A program made the translations under genes and the position numbers. A stretch of DNA of 64,000 bases, taken from NCBI GenBank assembly GCA_951812745.1, contig OX638327.1:1165914-1229913 (forward strand), in the 5' to 3' direction. Numbering within the stretch: position 1 is the first letter of the stretch; each line of letters starts with the position of its first letter. This document shows, piece after piece, positions 1-16,937 of this stretch. The DNA is from an uncultured Nitrospirales bacterium (GTDB lineage: Bacteria; Nitrospirota; Nitrospiria; Nitrospirales; UBA8639). The notes under the pieces are model-generated. The model searched no databases. It was not told the DNA's origin and saw nothing but the letters and a program-made list of their open reading frames with translations.

Positions 1-1438
1 AGAACCGAGGAAGGAGGTTATCCGCGTTAATCGGATAACCTCCTTCAAGTTTGGTCATATTTTCAATGATGTGGCGCAGTAGTTGATAATATGCCTTTTG
101 TTGGCTCGGGTCCTCGACGTTGTAGACCAGTGGTACTCTAGTGTAGTCGTGAATTTCCTGTAGTTCCTGCCCGGTTGTAGTTCCCGCAACATCCTGGCTG
201 GCCAACTTCTTCGCGATTTTGACCGAGATATTCGGTGGGCCAAGCTTTAGAATGCCATTGACTATCCGTTTCTGGTAGGGGTAAAGATTCTCATATTCGT
301 CAAGTAAAACAACAAACATTGAGTTCTCGAGCGGTAGAGTGTGACTACGCACTAAATCAACGACGCGTCTGAGTTGCTCTATATCGAAGGTCGCTATCGG
401 AACAGAAACATTTTCGCCATAAATGAACCTACGGCGAATGAATTCAGCCAGCTTTTTGTGCATTTGCGAGAGTCTAAATTGTAGTTCATCGAATGAGACC
501 AACTTGCGATCCGTTGAATCGAACAGTAACTCCTCCGCTGCTTCGCAGAGATTGCGTTCCACAAGCCGGACGTGATCGATCAAGTCGTGCTTGACGCAGT
601 ACATCAATTCCGAGAACAAACTCTCCGCTATCTGCAGAAATAATTCTTGTGAGGCAACGTCCATGAGGACAGCGTCAGTTGTTGGATCCAGATGTTCCAC
701 CTCGAAACTGACTCCTGCATTACAGATTGCCCCGCGGGTGAGCTTCAAGTAGAAACCGAAGAGTTGGGGTGCATTTTTTTCGGAGGAGCACCGTAGTAGA
801 AAATTACGAGCTCTTAAAGATAGCAAAAGCATTGACTTACCCGTGCCCCTCGATCCTTCGAGAATGCATGGTTTCATTTCCTCAAGCGCTCCGACCTTGA
901 CGGCATCAGGTAGCGCGAACGTCTTTGCGTGGAGTTCGGGCTGATTCTCGAAGAATTCAGCTCTAAGATGGCGAAATGGATTCTTTGAATTGGGTGTAAA
1001 CGCCTCGGCAACCACAGACGATGTTGTCTGACCGCTGATTATTACACCGCAGATGTCTTCCACTAACTTCCTTAGAGATTCTTGATTTCCTGGCATTAGC
1101 TTTCCATACACTTTAGGCCCAAGTATTGGTGGTAGTTCTGTGTCGTCCAGACAGACGACAATACATTTCCCCCCATCTTGTGCAACTTCGTTCCAAACTG
1201 CGGCATCGATTTCGAGTTTCTGCCACTCCGCGTCAGGAGTGTGCTTGGAGAAGAGAATGATGACTGCAGCAGCATTTGCGATTCCCTTGTTCATGAAGGC
1301 AATGACGTTATCCCCCAAACCAAGGTCCAGGGTATCGACCTTAGTCTCATGGTCAGCATTGCGCAGGTGCCCTGCCAACTCTGTTGCAATTTCCGCATCC
1401 TTGGAGGCATGTGAAATGAAGATGTGCGTGATACCCAT
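1..1438 (-). CDS. TIR domain + P-loop NTPase fusion (STAND-like, defence-type protein); C-terminus lies beyond the window edge
   Basis: Absent from the supplied ORF track because it is open at nt 1. Manual translation from ATG 1438-1436 gives 479 sense codons with no stop. N-term MGITHIFISHASKDAEIATELAGHL...AAVIILFSKHTPDAEWQKLEID is TIR-like. It is followed by Walker A ILEGSRGTGKSMLL and Walker B FVVLLDEYE. Confidence 0.8.
   Translation of the reverse strand, partial: MGITHIFISHASKDAEIATELAGHLRNADHETKVDTLDLGLGDNVIAFMNKGIANAAAVIILFSKHTPDAEWQKLEIDAAVWNEVAQDGGKCIVVCLDDTELPPILGPKVYGKLMPGNQESLRKLVEDICGVIISGQTTSSVVAEAFTPNSKNPFRHLRAEFFENQPELHAKTFALPDAVKVGALEEMKPCILEGSRGTGKSMLLLSLRARNFLLRCSSEKNAPQLFGFYLKLTRGAICNAGVSFEVEHLDPTTDAVLMDVASQELFLQIAESLFSELMYCVKHDLIDHVRLVERNLCEAAEELLFDSTDRKLVSFDELQFRLSQMHKKLAEFIRRRFIYGENVSVPIATFDIEQLRRVVDLVRSHTLPLENSMFVVLLDEYENLYPYQKRIVNGILKLGPPNISVKIAKKLASQDVAGTTTGQELQEIHDYTRVPLVYNVEDPSQQKAYYQLLRHIIENMTKLEGGYPINADNLLPRF
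10..46. repeat. perfect 15-bp inverted repeat with 7-nt loop inside the TIR-NTPase CDS
   Basis: Read directly: gaaggaggttatccg (10-24), loop cgttaat, cggataacctccttc (32-46). Confidence 0.9.
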
Positions 1439-1453
1439 ATTCTGGCAGATTCC

Positions 1454-1677
1454 TTACTTTGTATAGAAAGCTGTTGAAGTAGACCCGTGACTGATCAAGG
1501 ATTGGTAATCATATACCGAGCGAGCGATTAGGTTGGAAATGACCTTCTGCTTCATACCATCACCGCTCCACTCATCAGCCGCGACAATAGCAGGTCGTGG
1601 GCTTGGGATTATTGTCCGTATTCCGATGCGCCGTCACAATAGACCCCAACAAGGATGTTCGCATCAGGCAGGATCAT
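1454..1677 (-). pseudogene. decayed PIN-domain toxin (vapC remnant)
   Basis: ATG at 1677 overlaps the stop of the upstream VapB-like gene. It reads MILPDANILVGVYCDGASEYGQ (PIN-like N-terminus) and then TAA at 1611-1609. The remaining ~150 nt are open only in another frame, and the locus is far too short for a PIN domain. Confidence 0.4.
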
Positions 1678-1912
1678 GTTTTCCTTCGATGAGATCGAGG
1701 AGCGAGGCCGAGTCGCTCAGATCCACACCGGGTCTCACGCCTGTTCCATGGAACAGAGGCAGGTTGATAGCTGATCGCTCCGTTGTGCGACGTCGGGATA
1801 GAGACTCGCGGAGAGCGTCCTGAATGACGGCAGTCAGTGTCTTCCCTGTGTCTACAGCAATCCCCTTTAGCTCGGTGAATAGATGGTCATCAATATGAAT
1901 CGTTGTACGCAT
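1664..1912 (-). CDS. VapB-type antitoxin (MRTTIHIDD family)
   Basis: ORF-track protein trimmed to the internal ATG at 1912. MRTTIHIDDHLFTELKGIAVDTGKTLTAVIQDALRESL is the typical N-terminus of small VapB-type antitoxins. Confidence 0.7.
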   Translation of the reverse strand: MRTTIHIDDHLFTELKGIAVDTGKTLTAVIQDALRESLSRRRTTERSAINLPLFHGTGVRPGVDLSDSASLLDLIEGKHDPA

Positions 1913-2130
1913 GCACAAAAACATGCAGGCTGTACATAGTTATGTCAACAGTGAGGCGGCCGTGATGCTGCTGCCCTGATTGATTGCCCCGTCACTTCCT
2001 GGCCATCGCCATCGCAAACGCTCAAGGTGGGCGATAACAAGATAATAAATAGATGGACCATTGTAACCATGGTCATGACTATAGTACTATAACGGTGGGA
2101 TCAACAACAGAAAGGACAGGGTTTGAGGAG

Positions 2131-2406
2131 ATGAGTAGTCACAAAGTCGCTGGTTCCCGCATGATCAAGGCATCCGAGTTCAAGGCCAAGTGTCTGAAGT
2201 TGATGGACGAGGTGGCAGACAGCGGCGCCGAGATCGTCATTACCAAGAACGGTCACCCGGTGTCCCGGCTCGTGCCGTACCGCGAGAAGCCGAAGAGCTT
2301 GTTTGGCATCGATAAAGGAAGAATCAAGATACTTGGCGACATCATCCAACCGCTGGACGTGGAGTGGGAAGCCAATACCGGTAAGACGTGGGACGGTGAC
2401 CCGTGA
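2131..2406 (+). CDS. Phd/YefM-family antitoxin
   Basis: MIKASEFKAKCLKLMDEVADSGAEIVITKNGHPVSRLVPY matches the Phd/YefM pattern. Its stop overlaps the PIN toxin start. The start is uncertain (2131 or 2161). Confidence 0.7.
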   Translation: MSSHKVAGSRMIKASEFKAKCLKLMDEVADSGAEIVITKNGHPVSRLVPYREKPKSLFGIDKGRIKILGDIIQPLDVEWEANTGKTWDGDP

Positions 2407-2801
2407 TGCTGCTCGATACGCACGTCATGCTGTGGCTGAGAGCGGGTGAGGCGCGATTGGGAACCAGGGCTCGACGCGAGATCGACCGGGCATGGCAGTC
2501 CGGTGAAGTTGGCGTCTCCGCGATCTCGTTCTGGGAAATAGCGATGCTCAAGGACAGGGGACGGATCAGGTTCCCCGAAGACGTCGGCCTATGGCGTCGT
2601 GAGCAATTGGAACAGGGTATGGTCGAAATCGCCGTGGATGGAGCGATCGGAATCCGCGCGATCAGCCTTGCCGATTTCCATGCCGACCCGGCCGACCGTC
2701 TGATCGTCGCGACCGCGTTGGAGGGCCACCGTCTTGTGACCGCTGACGAACGCATTCTCGATTGGGCGGGTAATCTGAGCCGGCTGCGAGCCACGGAATG
2801 A
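2403..2801 (+). CDS. vapC: PIN-domain toxin VapC
   Basis: MLLDTHVMLWL...SAISFWEIAML...DPADRLIVATAL...LVTADERI is a PIN-domain acidic-residue pattern. The start overlaps the antitoxin stop (GTGATG). Confidence 0.8.
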   Translation: MMLLDTHVMLWLRAGEARLGTRARREIDRAWQSGEVGVSAISFWEIAMLKDRGRIRFPEDVGLWRREQLEQGMVEIAVDGAIGIRAISLADFHADPADRLIVATALEGHRLVTADERILDWAGNLSRLRATE

Positions 2802-2908: not shown

Positions 2909-3235
2909 TCAGTCGGCTTGGGCGGGCCAGAATTTATAGCGGATTTGAGGTAATTGTTTGCCTTCGAAGTTTGGAATGTCGTACAGGCACCGGTCGATGG
3001 TCTCGACCTCTTCCTTCGTAAATTCAAATTCCTTGGACACCTTCCAGAATTTATCAAAGGTGAAATAATCCCCTTTTTCCGGCTTTTCAGCCAGCGCGGC
3101 CTGCATTTGTTTAAAGCCTTCGGTATCCACGTTGGGGATCCGGCCGTTATTTTTGTCCACGCACCATTTCAGGATCTCGGCGACCCCGTACATGGTGAGT
3201 TCGATTTTCACTTTACCCGAATTTGTTTCCGACAT
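2909..3235 (-). CDS. hypothetical small protein
   Basis: ATG at 3235 is preceded by GGAAGGAGGAGG at about 6 nt. The composition looks like a real protein (MSETNSGKVKIELTMYGVAEILKWCVDKNNG...). I recognise no family. Confidence 0.55.
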   Translation of the reverse strand: MSETNSGKVKIELTMYGVAEILKWCVDKNNGRIPNVDTEGFKQMQAALAEKPEKGDYFTFDKFWKVSKEFEFTKEEVETIDRCLYDIPNFEGKQLPQIRYKFWPAQAD

Positions 3236-3352
3236 GAGCAACCTCCTCCTTCCAAAGATAAAATCTATAACACATTTTCCTGAAACTCTTCCAGTCGTTT
3301 CATCGGAAATTATATCTTTAGGTTAACAATGACCGTTTTTCTCAGAAAAACG

Positions 3353-4925: not shown

Positions 4926-5073
4926 GGCGGAGACCCCCGTCGGCGACACTCTTCTTGAGCGACCGCACAGGAACCGTCTGGATTTCTGCTTTCGCAGAAA
5001 TGACGGAAGAAAGAAGACGCGATAAGGCACGTCCCTGTCATCGAACAAGGATCGCGCGGCTACGAAGACGATT

Positions 5074-5110
5074 CCCCCTCACCCCTACCCTCTCCCGAGG
5101 GGAGAGGGAG
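5074..5110. repeat. REP family B (ccctcaccc..ccctctccc-NNNN-gggagaggg hairpin)
   Basis: ccccctcacccctaccctctcccgaggggagagggag read directly. Confidence 0.85.
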
Positions 5111-5142
5111 AAAAACGGGATACCCGCGTTCTCGGGAACCAG

Positions 5143-6330: not shown

Positions 6331-6566
6331 CGTTTCAGGAAAAAGTAGAGGAGAAGGCTGCCCACGATGCTGATGATGATACTGGTGCTCAGGGGAAAAT
6401 AAAAGGTGAAATTGTCCCGTTTGATGAAAATATCGCCCGGCAGCTTTCCCAGCCAGCCGAACCCTGTCCCTTCACCAGGCCACTTGCCGAGCAACGAGAC
6501 GATGATGCCGAGGACGACAATCCCCAAGCCCAGCACGATGAGCGTTTTCCCGATGAACTCCGGCAT
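6327..6566 (-). CDS. DUF2905-family small membrane protein
   Basis: GKLPGDIFIKRDNFTFYFPLSTSIIISIVGSLLLY is typical of DUF2905. It overlaps the downstream start by 4 nt. Confidence 0.7.
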   Translation of the reverse strand: MPEFIGKTLIVLGLGIVVLGIIVSLLGKWPGEGTGFGWLGKLPGDIFIKRDNFTFYFPLSTSIIISIVGSLLLYFFLKR

Positions 6567-6569
6567 GGC

Positions 6570-7580
6570 TCACTTCACCAATTCCTCGGCAATTTGAATG
6601 GCGTTGAGCGCGGCTCCCTTGCGCAGATTATCCGCCACCACCCACAAATTGAGGCCCTTGGGAATGGAGTCGTCCTCACGAATGCGTCCGACGAACACCG
6701 CATCCGTCCCAGCGGCGTGGATCTGCAGGGGATACAACTTTCGCGAAGGATCGTCATAGAGTTGCACGCCCGGGGCGGTCGAGAGAATGGCCCGGGTGTC
6801 TTCCACTGACAACTTCTGTTTCGTTTCGACGTTGATGGATTCCGCGTGACCCACGAACACGGGCACGCGCACCGTGGTCGCGGAAATCCCGATCGATCGG
6901 TCACCCAGAATCTTCCGGGTTTCGTTGACCATCTTCATTTCTTCGCCGGTATACCCCGACGACAAAAAGTCGTCGATGTGCGGCAAGCAGTTAAACGCGA
7001 TCTGATGCGGATACACCGTTGGCGTCACGTCACCAAAGCCCAACAACTGACGGCACTGTTCCGCCAATTCATCCATGGCCTCTTTCCCGGTACCGGAAAC
7101 CGATTGATAGGTCGAGACGACGACACGGGTAATCACGGCATGGTCATGTAACGGTTTGAGCACGACCACCATTTGAATGGTTGAGCAATTCGGGTTCGCC
7201 ACGATACCCTGGTGGGTTTCGAGATCGTGGGGGTTCACTTCGGGGACGACCAACGGGACCTGCGGGTCCATGCGCCACGCCGAGCTGTTGTCTATCACCA
7301 CCGCCCCGGCTTCGACGGCAACCGGCGCGTACTCTTGACTCACGGCGGCACCGGCGGAGAACAGCGCGATGTCGATCCCCCGAAACGAGTCCCGGGTGAG
7401 TAATTTCACCTTGACGTCCTCACCTCGAAACGACACGTCTCCACCCGCGGACCTGGACGACGCCAACGGGCGCACCTCTTCTACGGGGAACTTCCGTTCT
7501 TCCAGGACCGAGAGCATTTCCGTGCCCACGGCGCCGGTGGCCCCGACGACGGCAACGGTATAAGCTGATTTCTTCTTCAT
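6570..7580 (-). CDS. asd: aspartate-semialdehyde dehydrogenase
   Basis: VAVVGATGAVGTEM...NPNCSTIQMVV...VRVPVFVGHAESI. Trimmed to MKKKSAYTV at 7580. Confidence 0.9.
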   Translation of the reverse strand: MKKKSAYTVAVVGATGAVGTEMLSVLEERKFPVEEVRPLASSRSAGGDVSFRGEDVKVKLLTRDSFRGIDIALFSAGAAVSQEYAPVAVEAGAVVIDNSSAWRMDPQVPLVVPEVNPHDLETHQGIVANPNCSTIQMVVVLKPLHDHAVITRVVVSTYQSVSGTGKEAMDELAEQCRQLLGFGDVTPTVYPHQIAFNCLPHIDDFLSSGYTGEEMKMVNETRKILGDRSIGISATTVRVPVFVGHAESINVETKQKLSVEDTRAILSTAPGVQLYDDPSRKLYPLQIHAAGTDAVFVGRIREDDSIPKGLNLWVVADNLRKGAALNAIQIAEELVK

Positions 7581-15158: not shown

Positions 15159-16937
15159 CTACGCCGTCAGAATGGTGTCTTTACTCTCCCCTTTGCCCGT
15201 CGTCCCCGTCGTTTGTCGCTTCTGCAACTCCGGAGGATCTTCCAGAATCATTTCATGGTTGCAGCCACCGGCCGGAATCATGGGATAACAATTCTCGAAT
15301 TGGTTCACCGGCACGTCAACGAAGACCGGTTTGTCAATGGCCATCGCCTCTCGAATCCCGTCATCCACTTCACTGACTTTTTGAATGCGCAAGCCGGCCG
15401 CGCCATAGGCTTCCGCGAGTTTCACGAAATCCGGCGATTGATCCAAATAGCTGCACGAATAGCGGCCTTCATAGAACAGGTCCTGCCATTGTCGCACCAT
15501 GCCGTGGAACCGGTTATTGATGATAAACACCTTGACCGGCAGCTTTTCGATCGCGGCCGTCGCCAATTCCTGGCTGTTCATCTGGACGCTCCCGTCACCC
15601 GCAATACACAACACGAGTCGATTCCGAAAAGCCGCCTGGGCTCCCAGGGCCGCGGGAAAGCCGAAGCCCATTGTCCCCAACCCGCCGGACGTGAGCCACG
15701 TATTCGGTTTGGTGAGATGAAAGTACTGCGCCGCCCACATCTGATGCTGTCCCACGTCGGTGGACACGATCGGGTCGCGGTCCTTCGTCAGTTGATAGAC
15801 CCGGTCGATCAGGTACTGCGGCTTGATCAATTGATCGGCCTCCTGCTCGTAGCTCAGGGGGTGAGCGGTCTTCCACTCATTCAATTGATCCCACCACGGC
15901 TTGCGCAATTCTTTCTGGTCGCCGTTCACCGTCGCGCGCAACACGTTGTTCAATTCCTGCAGCACGCATTTGCAATCACCCACGATGGGAACGTCCACGT
16001 GAATGTTCTTGCGAATCGACGTCGGATCAATATCGATATGGATAATCTTGGCACTCGGACAAAATTCGGACACCTTGCCCGTCACGCGATCATCGAACCT
16101 GGCGCCGATGGCTATCACGAGATCGGAATAATGAATGGCCATGTTGGCCACGTACGTGCCGTGCATGCCGAGCATCCCCAGGGACAACGGATGTTGACCG
16201 GGGAAAGCCCCCAGGGCCATCAAGGTCTGGTTCACGGGGATCTGGGTCATCTCGGCCAATTCGCGAACCTCCGCAGAGGCGCCGGACAACTGCACGCCGC
16301 CGCCGATGTAGATGACGGGCCGGCGAGCCTTCATGATGGCATCGGCGGCTTGCTTGATCTTCCACTTGCTGCCCTCATAGGTCGGGTTGTAGCCGCGAAT
16401 CGAGACCGAGTCCGGATACTTGAAATCGGCCTTGTCCATGGAGATATCCTTGGGAATATCCACCAACACGGGACCGGGTCTGCCGGTGGACGCGATGTAG
16501 AACGCTTCCTTGATGGTCTCCGCCAAATCATTCACGTCCTTCACCAGAAAATTATATTTCGTGCAGGGACGGCTGAGCCCGATGTTGTCGGCTTCCTGAA
16601 AAGCATCATTCCCGATGAGCGCCGTGGGGACCTGCCCGGAAAAGCACACCATGGGCACGGAATCCATATAGGCATCGGCCAGGGCGGTGATGACGTTGGT
16701 CATACCGGGACCCGACGTGATCAAGGCCACCCCGGGTTTCCCCGTGGCTTTCGCATAGCCTTCCGCCATGTGGCCGGCCGCTTGTTCATGCCGGGTTAAA
16801 ATGACTTCGATGTCTTTCTGTTGATGCAGGACGTCGAAAATTTTCAGGACCACCCCACCGGGAAGGGCAAAAATCGTTTTTACACCTTCGCGCTTCAAGG
16901 CTTCCACAAAAATTTCGGCTCCTGTAAGCTGTGCCAT
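15159..16937 (-). CDS. ilvB: acetolactate synthase large subunit
   Basis: [19 protein letters not shown]...[16 protein letters not shown]... ThDP-enzyme pattern. Trimmed to ATG 16937. Confidence 0.95.

Follow-up and report, generated by a model that had tools for sequence, protein, structure and literature searches.

TIR domains that cleave nicotinamide adenine dinucleotide (NAD+) are established effectors, and in TIR-SAVED, TIR-STING, Cat1 and SPARTA their activity is turned on by oligomerisation (PMC9704534, PMC12871103). In Cat1 (CARF-TIR), TIR-SAVED and TIR-STING the TIR is carried on one polypeptide with a Rossmann-type nucleotide sensor and is activated by cyclic oligoadenylate from CRISPR type III or CBASS, while Thoeris is based on a TIR producer and a Rossmann-type sensor (PMC9704534). 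ATPases of the ORC/Cdc6 clade are known from BREX, where the ATPase BrxC occurs with the methyltransferase PglX and a classical restriction nuclease is absent (PMC12839542). Finally, Orc/Cdc6-TIR fusions in mobile neighbourhoods have already been noted computationally, with a Walker-B-defective second Orc/Cdc6 protein and a KAP NTPase as their partners (PMC10853773). Here we analyze gene A, which starts at position 1438 on the minus strand of a 64,000-nt stretch of DNA from an uncultured Nitrospirales bacterium (the window; assembly GCA_951812745.1, contig OX638327.1, positions 1,165,914 to 1,229,913) and encodes a TIR domain fused to an ORC/Cdc6-like ATPase. We find that in related loci gene A is followed by gene B, for a CARF-like protein, and gene C, for a DNA methyltransferase. 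TIR effectors, CARF sensors, the pairing of an ORC/Cdc6-type ATPase with a methyltransferase and Orc/Cdc6-TIR fusions are thus all known, and what is unusual is their combination in this trio. We are fairly confident that gene A is a component of a conflict or defence cassette in which the TIR domain is the effector.

The frame of gene A comprises 479 sense codons without a stop, from ATG 1438 to base 2 (translation of window positions 1–1438), as had been claimed in an earlier note on this DNA. The frame is real rather than a chance opening, since its product matches 327 database proteins, including P0001, a protein of 758 residues that is 100% identical to it over all 479 window residues. 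The window therefore holds codons 1–479 of 758 (1–1438, minus strand), and the last 279 codons lie to the left of its edge.

The N-terminal part of the protein (residues 6–125; 1064–1423, minus strand) is a TIR domain. It matches Pfam TIR_2 (PF13676) over model positions 1–121 of 122 with E=6.4e-19 and 69.1 bits (cut-off 28). Sequence matches in the PDB were BtTir, PdTIR, BtpA/TcpB and AbTir, the last of which is deposited under the title 'NAD(+) hydrolase AbTIR', and the TIR of Cat1 was recovered both by sequence (E=3.6e-4) and by Foldseek. When an AlphaFold2 (AF2) model of the full protein (predicted local distance difference test, pLDDT, 72) was searched with Foldseek, PdTIR, BtpA, AbTir, BtTir, MyD88 and MAL were matched with probability 1.0 and target-normalised template-modelling (TM) scores of 0.6–0.77. 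By sequence and predicted fold, then, the nearest solved relatives of this domain are bacterial TIR domains. The codon of Glu76 (1211–1213, minus strand) falls at the catalytic-glutamate position of NAD+-cleaving TIRs: the motif W72-x3-E76 is unchanged in 55 full-length homologues of gene A, Glu76 coincides, in alignments with BtTir and PdTIR, with the glutamate of their W..E motif, and it is retained in a 29%-identical archaeal clade. We predict from this alignment and the model that the TIR is of the NAD+-cleaving type. Models of PADLOC and NCBIfam that recognized gene A did so through the TIR part and were PDC-S66, bSEFIR, retron RT-TIR and, weakly, ThsB; the Pfam model ThsB_TIR scored 19.9 bits, under its cut-off of 21.2. 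Nothing points to a phage or plasmid origin of gene A: no phage match was found, plasmid matches were limited to the TIR, and there was a single, 26%-identical match in IMG/VR.

The remainder of the protein belongs to the Pfam family ORC-CDC6-like (PF24389), and the N-terminal 327 residues of this AAA+ module (153–479) are encoded in the window at 1–982 on the minus strand. The family matched the window part at residues 153–466 (E=9.5e-29, 101 bits) and the full P0001 at residues 153–707, that is, model positions 1–566 of 571 (E=1.7e-48, 166 bits; cut-off 27 for both), and it was present in 120/120 gene A homologues among the matches listed. The earlier note had held that the family could not be fixed and that a C-terminal sensor lay outside the window. 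The full-length match settles the family and, since it covers residues 153–707, the missing 279 residues belong with this ATPase family and not to a separate sensor. Walker A (P-loop; G195-S-R-G-T-G-K201-S202, 833–856, minus strand) is invariant in the 55 homologues, as are D380 and E381 of Walker B (V376-V-L-L-D380-E381, 296–313, minus strand), which come after the predicted strand 374–380. The motifs read in the earlier note are thus conserved, and both Pfam families score above their cut-offs. Arg434 (137–139, minus strand), also invariant in the 55 homologues, is a candidate arginine finger: in the AF2 model it lies directly N-terminal to the fifth core strand, and in ORC/Cdc6 ATPases the arginine finger sits just ahead of strand 5 (PMC12839542). 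The model further contains a long helical insert (252–366) between strands 226–232 and 374–380, lid helices past the core (444–530) and helix/beta-hairpin elements at 638–712, with no Cdc6_C or helix-turn-helix (HTH) Pfam match at E<=1; pLDDT is below 50 at 159–203 and 411–437.

A fusion of TIR and P-loop NTPase in a defence-island context could also be a single-protein receptor of the TIR-STAND/Avs-like kind, or a Thoeris ThsB-type protein, with its sensor beyond the window. These were the systems named in the earlier note, and the Aravind classification does group STAND NTPases with the ORC/Cdc6 family (PMC10853773). Searches of the full P0001 at E<=1 argue against such a receptor: no NB-ARC or NACHT module was found with Pfam, PADLOC or NCBIfam, no TPR, WD40 or LRR repeat or other sensor domain was detected, and PF24389 spans 153–707. 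Thoeris shares with our locus a bacterial TIR in a multi-gene defence setting, along with weak local matches of ThsB models. However, ThsB_TIR stays below its cut-off, the TIR is fused to an ATPase, and there is no ThsA-like partner (SIR2/Macro-SLOG) in about 40 loci, in all of which B and C are obligate partners. We therefore regard a STAND- or ThsB-type protein as quite improbable. Faint profile matches of the ATPase part were a Sll1717-family ATPase (E=5e-4), DS41_1 (0.002) and mad8 (0.013). The mad8 similarity, which reaches 1.5e-7 in relatives, and sister methyltransferases resembling mad2 recall MADS; however, the other mad genes are absent and the scores are far under family level, so that kinship with MADS would amount at most to distant common ATPase ancestry.

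To define the neighbourhood of gene A, homologous loci were scanned in one genome per species (77 loci), by clustering of open reading frames (ORFs) and then with hidden Markov models (HMMs) built from our own alignments. In about 40 loci, B (~315 aa) and then C (~400 aa) come after gene A on its own strand, and both the A/B and the B/C junctions are mostly 4-bp overlaps (ATGA/GTGA). The nearest relatives with an intact cassette are L078, whose gene A is 93% identical (94% as DNA), and L079, with 82%. For the window's own contig, the database records P0258 as gene B and P0338 as gene C, the latter with 397 aa and 92% identity to C of L078; both come from a contig of 2,346,994 bp, a length that matches the contig of P0001 to the base, and this contig also bears the window's SpoIID. 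No fourth gene is conserved in these TIR-type loci (~40), either upstream or in a position to act downstream. None of the three conserved genes matched a nuclease, PglZ, BrxA, BrxB or BrxL, and among the system models of PADLOC v2 and NCBIfam 20 none matches the trio, which is also unmentioned in Payne et al. 2024 on embedded systems. The locus resembles BREX in its ORC/Cdc6-type ATPase, its methyltransferase and the lack of a classical restriction nuclease. Unlike BREX, it lacks the PglZ, BrxA, BrxB and BrxL components, its ATPase has 758 aa against 1200–1300 aa in BrxC, it matches no BREX model, and TIR and CARF are not BREX components. From the Orc/Cdc6-TIR fusions of PMC10853773 it differs in its partners, which are here CARF6 and a methyltransferase. 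That gene A heads a conserved operon of three genes, the others being for a CARF-like protein and a methyltransferase, could not be seen in the earlier note, and it changes the likely mechanism.

The cassette is spread over at least 8 bacterial phyla and archaea. Its hosts include Latescibacterota, Acidobacteriota (Vicinamibacterales, Bryobacterales, Holophagales), Verrucomicrobiota, Planctomycetota, Brocadiia, Spirochaetia, Binatia, Betaproteobacteria and Hydrogenedentota, and among the archaea Methanoregula and others, in which gene A is 28–30% identical. The cassette occurs in soil, sediment and sponge-associated phyla that have been little studied, as well as in methanogenic archaea. With 94 clusters (50% identity, E<=1e-30), the family is modest in size. 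Identities of 70–78% between phyla indicate horizontal transfer of the cassette. About 30 copies are intact, while ~10/41 are split by insertions, frameshifts or deletions; such frequent decay is expected of a costly gene. In the broken copies (L001, L017, L018, L020, L023, L025, L029, L033, L040, L005) we observed transposase-size insertions, either within gene A or in the A/B interval, as well as frameshifts and a deletion fusing A to C.

Gene B has a 316-aa consensus and encodes a tandem CARF-like protein. PADLOC CARF6 models matched it with E=1e-26 to 1e-36; no Pfam or NCBIfam family and no effector domain were found. Its AF2 model contains two Rossmann-like domains (pLDDT 85, predicted TM score 0.88), for which the consistent Foldseek matches were the CARF domains of Cam1, Csm6, Cad1, Sis0455, VC1899, Can2 and Card1 (probability ~1.0). 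In domain 1, the first strand ends with Ser20/Ser21, and strand 4 is followed by D107-I-S109-V-F-T-K113, which conforms to the CARF signature [DN]x[ST]xxx[RK] (PMC4012209). Since the CARF6 HMMs, the fold, the Foldseek matches and this signature all agree, we count B as CARF-like, and its pocket signature predicts that it binds a nucleotide ligand. Gene C matches PF01555 (N6_N4_Mtase) and PADLOC MTase_II (up to 1e-49). Its product carries FCGSG close to the N-terminus, and a SPPY motif ~190 residues further on. By family it is a DNA methyltransferase of the N6/N4 type, and one source labels a member N4-cytosine-specific.

Additional information came from more distant ATPase homologues of 600–680 aa, which score 1e-9 to 1e-30 against the gene A family in hmmsearch and have no TIR. 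The next gene again encodes a CARF6 protein (PDLC01913, up to 1e-102), preceded by a ~300-aa gene for PF24390 PRTase-CE (E ~1e-40 to 1e-51) upstream of the ATPase and followed by a ~355-aa gene for a PF02384-type DNA methyltransferase. These sister cassettes share with A-B-C a homologous ATPase and CARF6 protein in the same order and orientation, with the methyltransferase last. They differ in that the effector is a separate upstream gene rather than a TIR fusion, and in the methyltransferase family (PF02384 versus PF01555). Because the distant pairs of ATPase and CARF6 carry a separate PRTase-CE and no TIR, the TIR looks swapped-in and exchangeable. On this sequence comparison, the shared core is the ATPase, CARF6 and a methyltransferase of either family, combined with one of two effectors, PRTase-CE as a gene of its own or TIR as a fusion. 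The exchange thus amounts to a natural experiment on what the core senses. PRTase-CE has relatives in the PRTase effectors of type III-A retrons. The 'conflict effector' names reportedly originate with Nicastro, Burroughs, Iyer and Aravind (NAR 2023); 'CE' is given as 'conflict effector' in PMC12871103. In addition, relatives of gene A match the PADLOC model 'CARF6--CARF_STK_AAA' in its AAA portion, so in some proteins CARF6 and this ATPase are fused, and the two probably act together, as far as a fusion model can tell.

The four-gene PRTase-CE/ORC-CDC6-like ATPase/CARF6/N6 DNA methyltransferase cassettes (L043-L057, L060, L071) were seen in Bacteroidota, Lachnospiraceae, Actinomycetota, Planctomycetota, Caldisericota and archaea. 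Neither PADLOC v2 nor NCBIfam has a model for them at the system level, and we found no experimental characterisation. Other homologues (L039, L041, L042, P0497, P0503 and others) have unrelated N-terminal domains of ~200 aa, and P0507 has a TIR-like stretch at its C-terminus. P0509, P0528 and P0547 carry no N-terminal TIR and share a conserved C-terminal extension of ~340 aa with two similar halves (motifs such as NVMFELGMA). By eye this extension was a candidate for a TIR-like domain, but no PDB sequence matched it, and we assign it to no family.

The domain make-up of gene A, the conserved operon, the exchange of effectors, the horizontal spread and the presence/absence polymorphism described below are the observed basis on which we propose a mechanism. 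A-B-C would be a horizontally mobile anti-phage or anti-plasmid cassette, with A as its effector-bearing subunit. C would methylate the host's own DNA as a self mark; this is suggested by its family and by the different methyltransferase family in the same operon slot of the sister cassettes, since two unrelated families in one slot imply that the activity itself is selected. The ATPase module, together with B, would monitor a DNA or nucleotide cue and form an ATP-dependent oligomer upon non-self input, as the invariant Walker A and B motifs, the candidate arginine finger and the analogy with BrxC-PglX of BREX suggest. This assembly would cluster the TIR domains, leading to NAD+ cleavage and a growth stop of the infected cell, consistent with the invariant catalytic Glu, the NAD+-cleaving type of the nearest TIRs and the PRTase-CE found in place of the TIR in the sisters. 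Finally, B may be a nucleotide-binding regulatory subunit of the ATPase, given its CARF pocket signature without an effector domain and the CARF6-kinase-AAA fusion model that matches relatives of A. We hold it to be an even call whether this whole chain applies, i.e. a methylation-linked anti-invader system in which an ATPase assembly turns on NAD+ cleavage by the TIR. If A-B-C is an immune system, it would be a compact three-gene unit joining NAD+ cleavage by TIR, nucleotide sensing by CARF and self-marking by methylation, three topics that earlier work has treated apart. It shares with Cat1, TIR-SAVED and TIR-STING a Rossmann-type nucleotide sensor and a TIR NADase that would fire on oligomerisation. 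In contrast to these, it divides CARF and TIR between two proteins, includes an AAA+ ATPase and a methyltransferase, and encodes no cyclase.

What B senses allows further readings. Tentatively, B could be a CARF sensor outside CRISPR that reads a nucleotide, either made by the TIR or derived from C-methylated DNA, and gates the ORC/Cdc6-like ATPase that fires the TIR NADase; we find this possible but doubtful. If true, it would link DNA methylation, second-messenger sensing and NAD+ depletion in one unit across bacteria and archaea. A variant is Thoeris-like signalling, in which the TIR of A makes an NAD-derived messenger, a cyclic ADP-ribose (cADPR) isomer or similar, with no depletion of NAD+, and B binds it to control the ATPase or the methyltransferase. 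CARF domains sense cyclic nucleotides and B keeps the ligand-pocket signature, while the nearest solved TIRs, AbTir, BtTir and BtpA, represent the bacterial NAD+-cleaving group, members of which also form cADPR isomers. A TIR producer with a Rossmann-type sensor is, moreover, the basis of Thoeris (PMC9704534). However, B has no effector domain and there is no fourth conserved gene that could act downstream, the PRTase-CE of the sisters is a predicted nucleotide-degrading effector and not a signal synthase, and B is also present in TIR-less cassettes, so that its ligand is in general not a TIR product. We consider such signalling unlikely.

Alternatively, methylation could be the source of the trigger rather than a self mark: a phage would degrade the C-marked chromosome, and the methylated mononucleotides would bind B and license the ATPase to fire the TIR. 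This has a precedent in PUA-Cal-HAD, which is triggered by m6-dAMP from Dam-methylated DNA (PMC12871103), and it would account for a methyltransferase that is always co-encoded with a nucleotide-sensor-like protein and for the lack of a recognisable methylation reader. Nonetheless, as to the ligand of B this alarm would be purely an analogy, and ORC/Cdc6-type ATPases that occur with methyltransferases in BREX act on DNA (PMC12839542); we rate it as improbable.

Several observations weigh against the proposed methylation-linked system. The 'ORC/Cdc6' label of A rests on the Pfam family name and on model features. When a profile of the PF24389 family was run against PDB sequences at E<=10, it returned TIR chains and no solved ATPase, including no Orc1/Cdc6; similarly, the Foldseek list for the full model of A was filled by TIR matches and contained no ORC/Cdc6 structure. 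P0001 has no Cdc6_C or HTH match (Pfam, E<=1) that would mark a C-terminal winged helix, and DNA binding is thus presumptive. No defence-system model of PADLOC v2 or NCBIfam matches the ATPase (best mad8 at 0.013 and DS41_1 at 0.002). The cassette contains no recognisable nuclease, PglZ or known DNA-methylation reader, which leaves no evident route by which the methylation state would be read. The role given to B is the weakest step of the mechanism. Furthermore, B of the window genome (P0258) is recorded as 257 aa, with its start at Met60 of the 316-aa consensus. This may be a mis-called start, or a 5' defect that removes CARF strand 1 and the Ser-Ser-His-Glu motif, in which case the copy is defective. 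Gene C also has weak matches to tRNA m2G methyltransferases, and its target could in principle be other than DNA. Finally, in the literature covered, which did not extend to the CARF census or the paper naming PRTase-CE, we found no description of or experiment on A-B-C or any of its members; it is likely that specialists have noticed the cassette computationally before.

The position of gene A in the genome is consistent with mobile defence cargo. G+C is 45–49% over 1–1500, and so over gene A, compared with 56–64% rightwards and ~58–60% for the window around the gene, and gene A lies beside toxin-antitoxin genes confirmed by Pfam, both as stated in the earlier note: a Phd/YefM antitoxin (2053–2406, plus strand) and a PIN-domain VapC toxin (2403–2801, plus strand). 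The pair (2053–2801) is divergent from gene A, and the same arrangement is found upstream of A in L079. Between this pair and gene A of the window lies an ORF for a VapB-like ribbon-helix-helix antitoxin without an adjacent toxin (1664–1924, minus strand; PF09957 at 22.5 bits, cut-off 23.4). Next to the start of A is a relic of a type I hsdS gene, consisting of its last 18 codons (1552–1608, minus strand, ending in SQAHDLLLSRLMSGAVMV) cut off by an in-frame stop and matching the C-terminal end of HsdS in L078, where an intact hsdS immediately precedes gene A. This relic indicates that the window cassette descends from one that lay inside a type I restriction-modification (R-M) locus. Indeed, the cassette lies between intact hsdS and hsdR in L078, L082, L007 and L013, and in L080 its neighbours in a defence island are AbiE, RloB/AAA_21, a UvrD helicase and a large methyltransferase. 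The noncoding stretch between the relic and gene A (1439–1551, minus strand) is 75–94% identical to L078, L013, L001 and L079 and contains a -10-like box, TATATGAT, and an AAGGA ribosome-binding site ~11 nt 5' of ATG 1438; by these features it may be the leader and promoter of gene A. An exact 40-mer from the window start was not present in JGI metagenomes.

Contigs of conspecific strains, found by a LeuA 100% identical to that of the window, showed where the islet ends. By blastn, the window from 6000 to 2881 is 99.3% identical to L087, L088 and L090 and divergent beyond, while homology to strains with R-M cargo ends at 2903, placing the right-hand border at 2860–2903. The islet of the window thus starts near 2880 and runs left beyond the window edge. 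Strains with an empty site (L087, L088, L090, L091) have a 108-aa ORF, ~100 nt, and then a spermine-synthase-like gene, TerB and MurJ. In a second allele (L086, L094, L089) the site is filled by a type II R-M system with an Eco57I-type methyltransferase and a BsuBI/PstI-type endonuclease. At the same site in the related genome L079 there are VapC-Phd and A-B-C (5.7 kb), followed by the same spermine synthase, TerB and MurJ. Remnants are shared between alleles: at the L089 hotspot, the VapB-like gene and the sequence as far as 1568 stand beside different cargo, and an 84-nt piece of the Phd gene persists in L086. The site is a strain-variable defence hotspot which, together with relatives inside type I R-M loci and defence islands, bears out the defence-island context proposed in the earlier note. 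Empty, R-M-filled and cassette-filled alleles in near-identical strains provide a population-level system in which to follow how an uncultured nitrifier lineage acquires and loses defence genes.

These data bear on two other explanations for gene A. One is that it encodes a housekeeping ATPase, replication-initiator-like or regulatory, with a TIR-like fold. Its sole pointer is the Pfam name 'ORC-CDC6-like', and it is contradicted by the absence of the gene from conspecific strains with near-identical flanks. The atypical G+C, the patchy distribution including archaea, the frequent pseudogenisation and the constant methyltransferase and CARF-like partners argue against it too. This explanation is extremely improbable. 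The other is a selfish addiction module in which the TIR-ATPase would act as a poison that kills cells losing the cassette, as many R-M systems do, with C as its antidote. Transfer across phyla at 70–94% identity, common decay and the company of toxin-antitoxin genes in the window and in L079 would fit such a module. However, addiction is compatible with defence, as classical R-M does both, and embedding in type I R-M loci along with a hotspot that alternates with R-M is the usual pattern of defence cargo. As the main role of the cassette, addiction thus seems to us a poor prospect.

Some minor features were observed around the islet. No direct repeats were found at its junction, and the 64-kb window has no tRNA or tmRNA gene and no Rfam family at gathering score, hence no integration mark. 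The ORF at 2909–3241 (minus strand; 46% G+C, 108/110 aa, no Pfam family), which is AT-rich and shared with L079, was considered as islet cargo and assigned to the backbone, as it is present in every strain including those with an empty site. Between this 110-aa ORF and queA, a perfect palindromic hairpin with an 8-bp stem, CGTTTTTCTCAGAAAAACG, lies at 3334–3352 and is terminator-like on both strands. Finally, an intergenic element of 40–50 nt with ~86% identity recurs at window positions 5062–5118, in L079 at 6758–6801 and in L087 at 2667–2709, 6445–6493 and 16498–16539, and is possibly a repeat similar to repetitive extragenic palindromic (REP) elements or a shared terminator.

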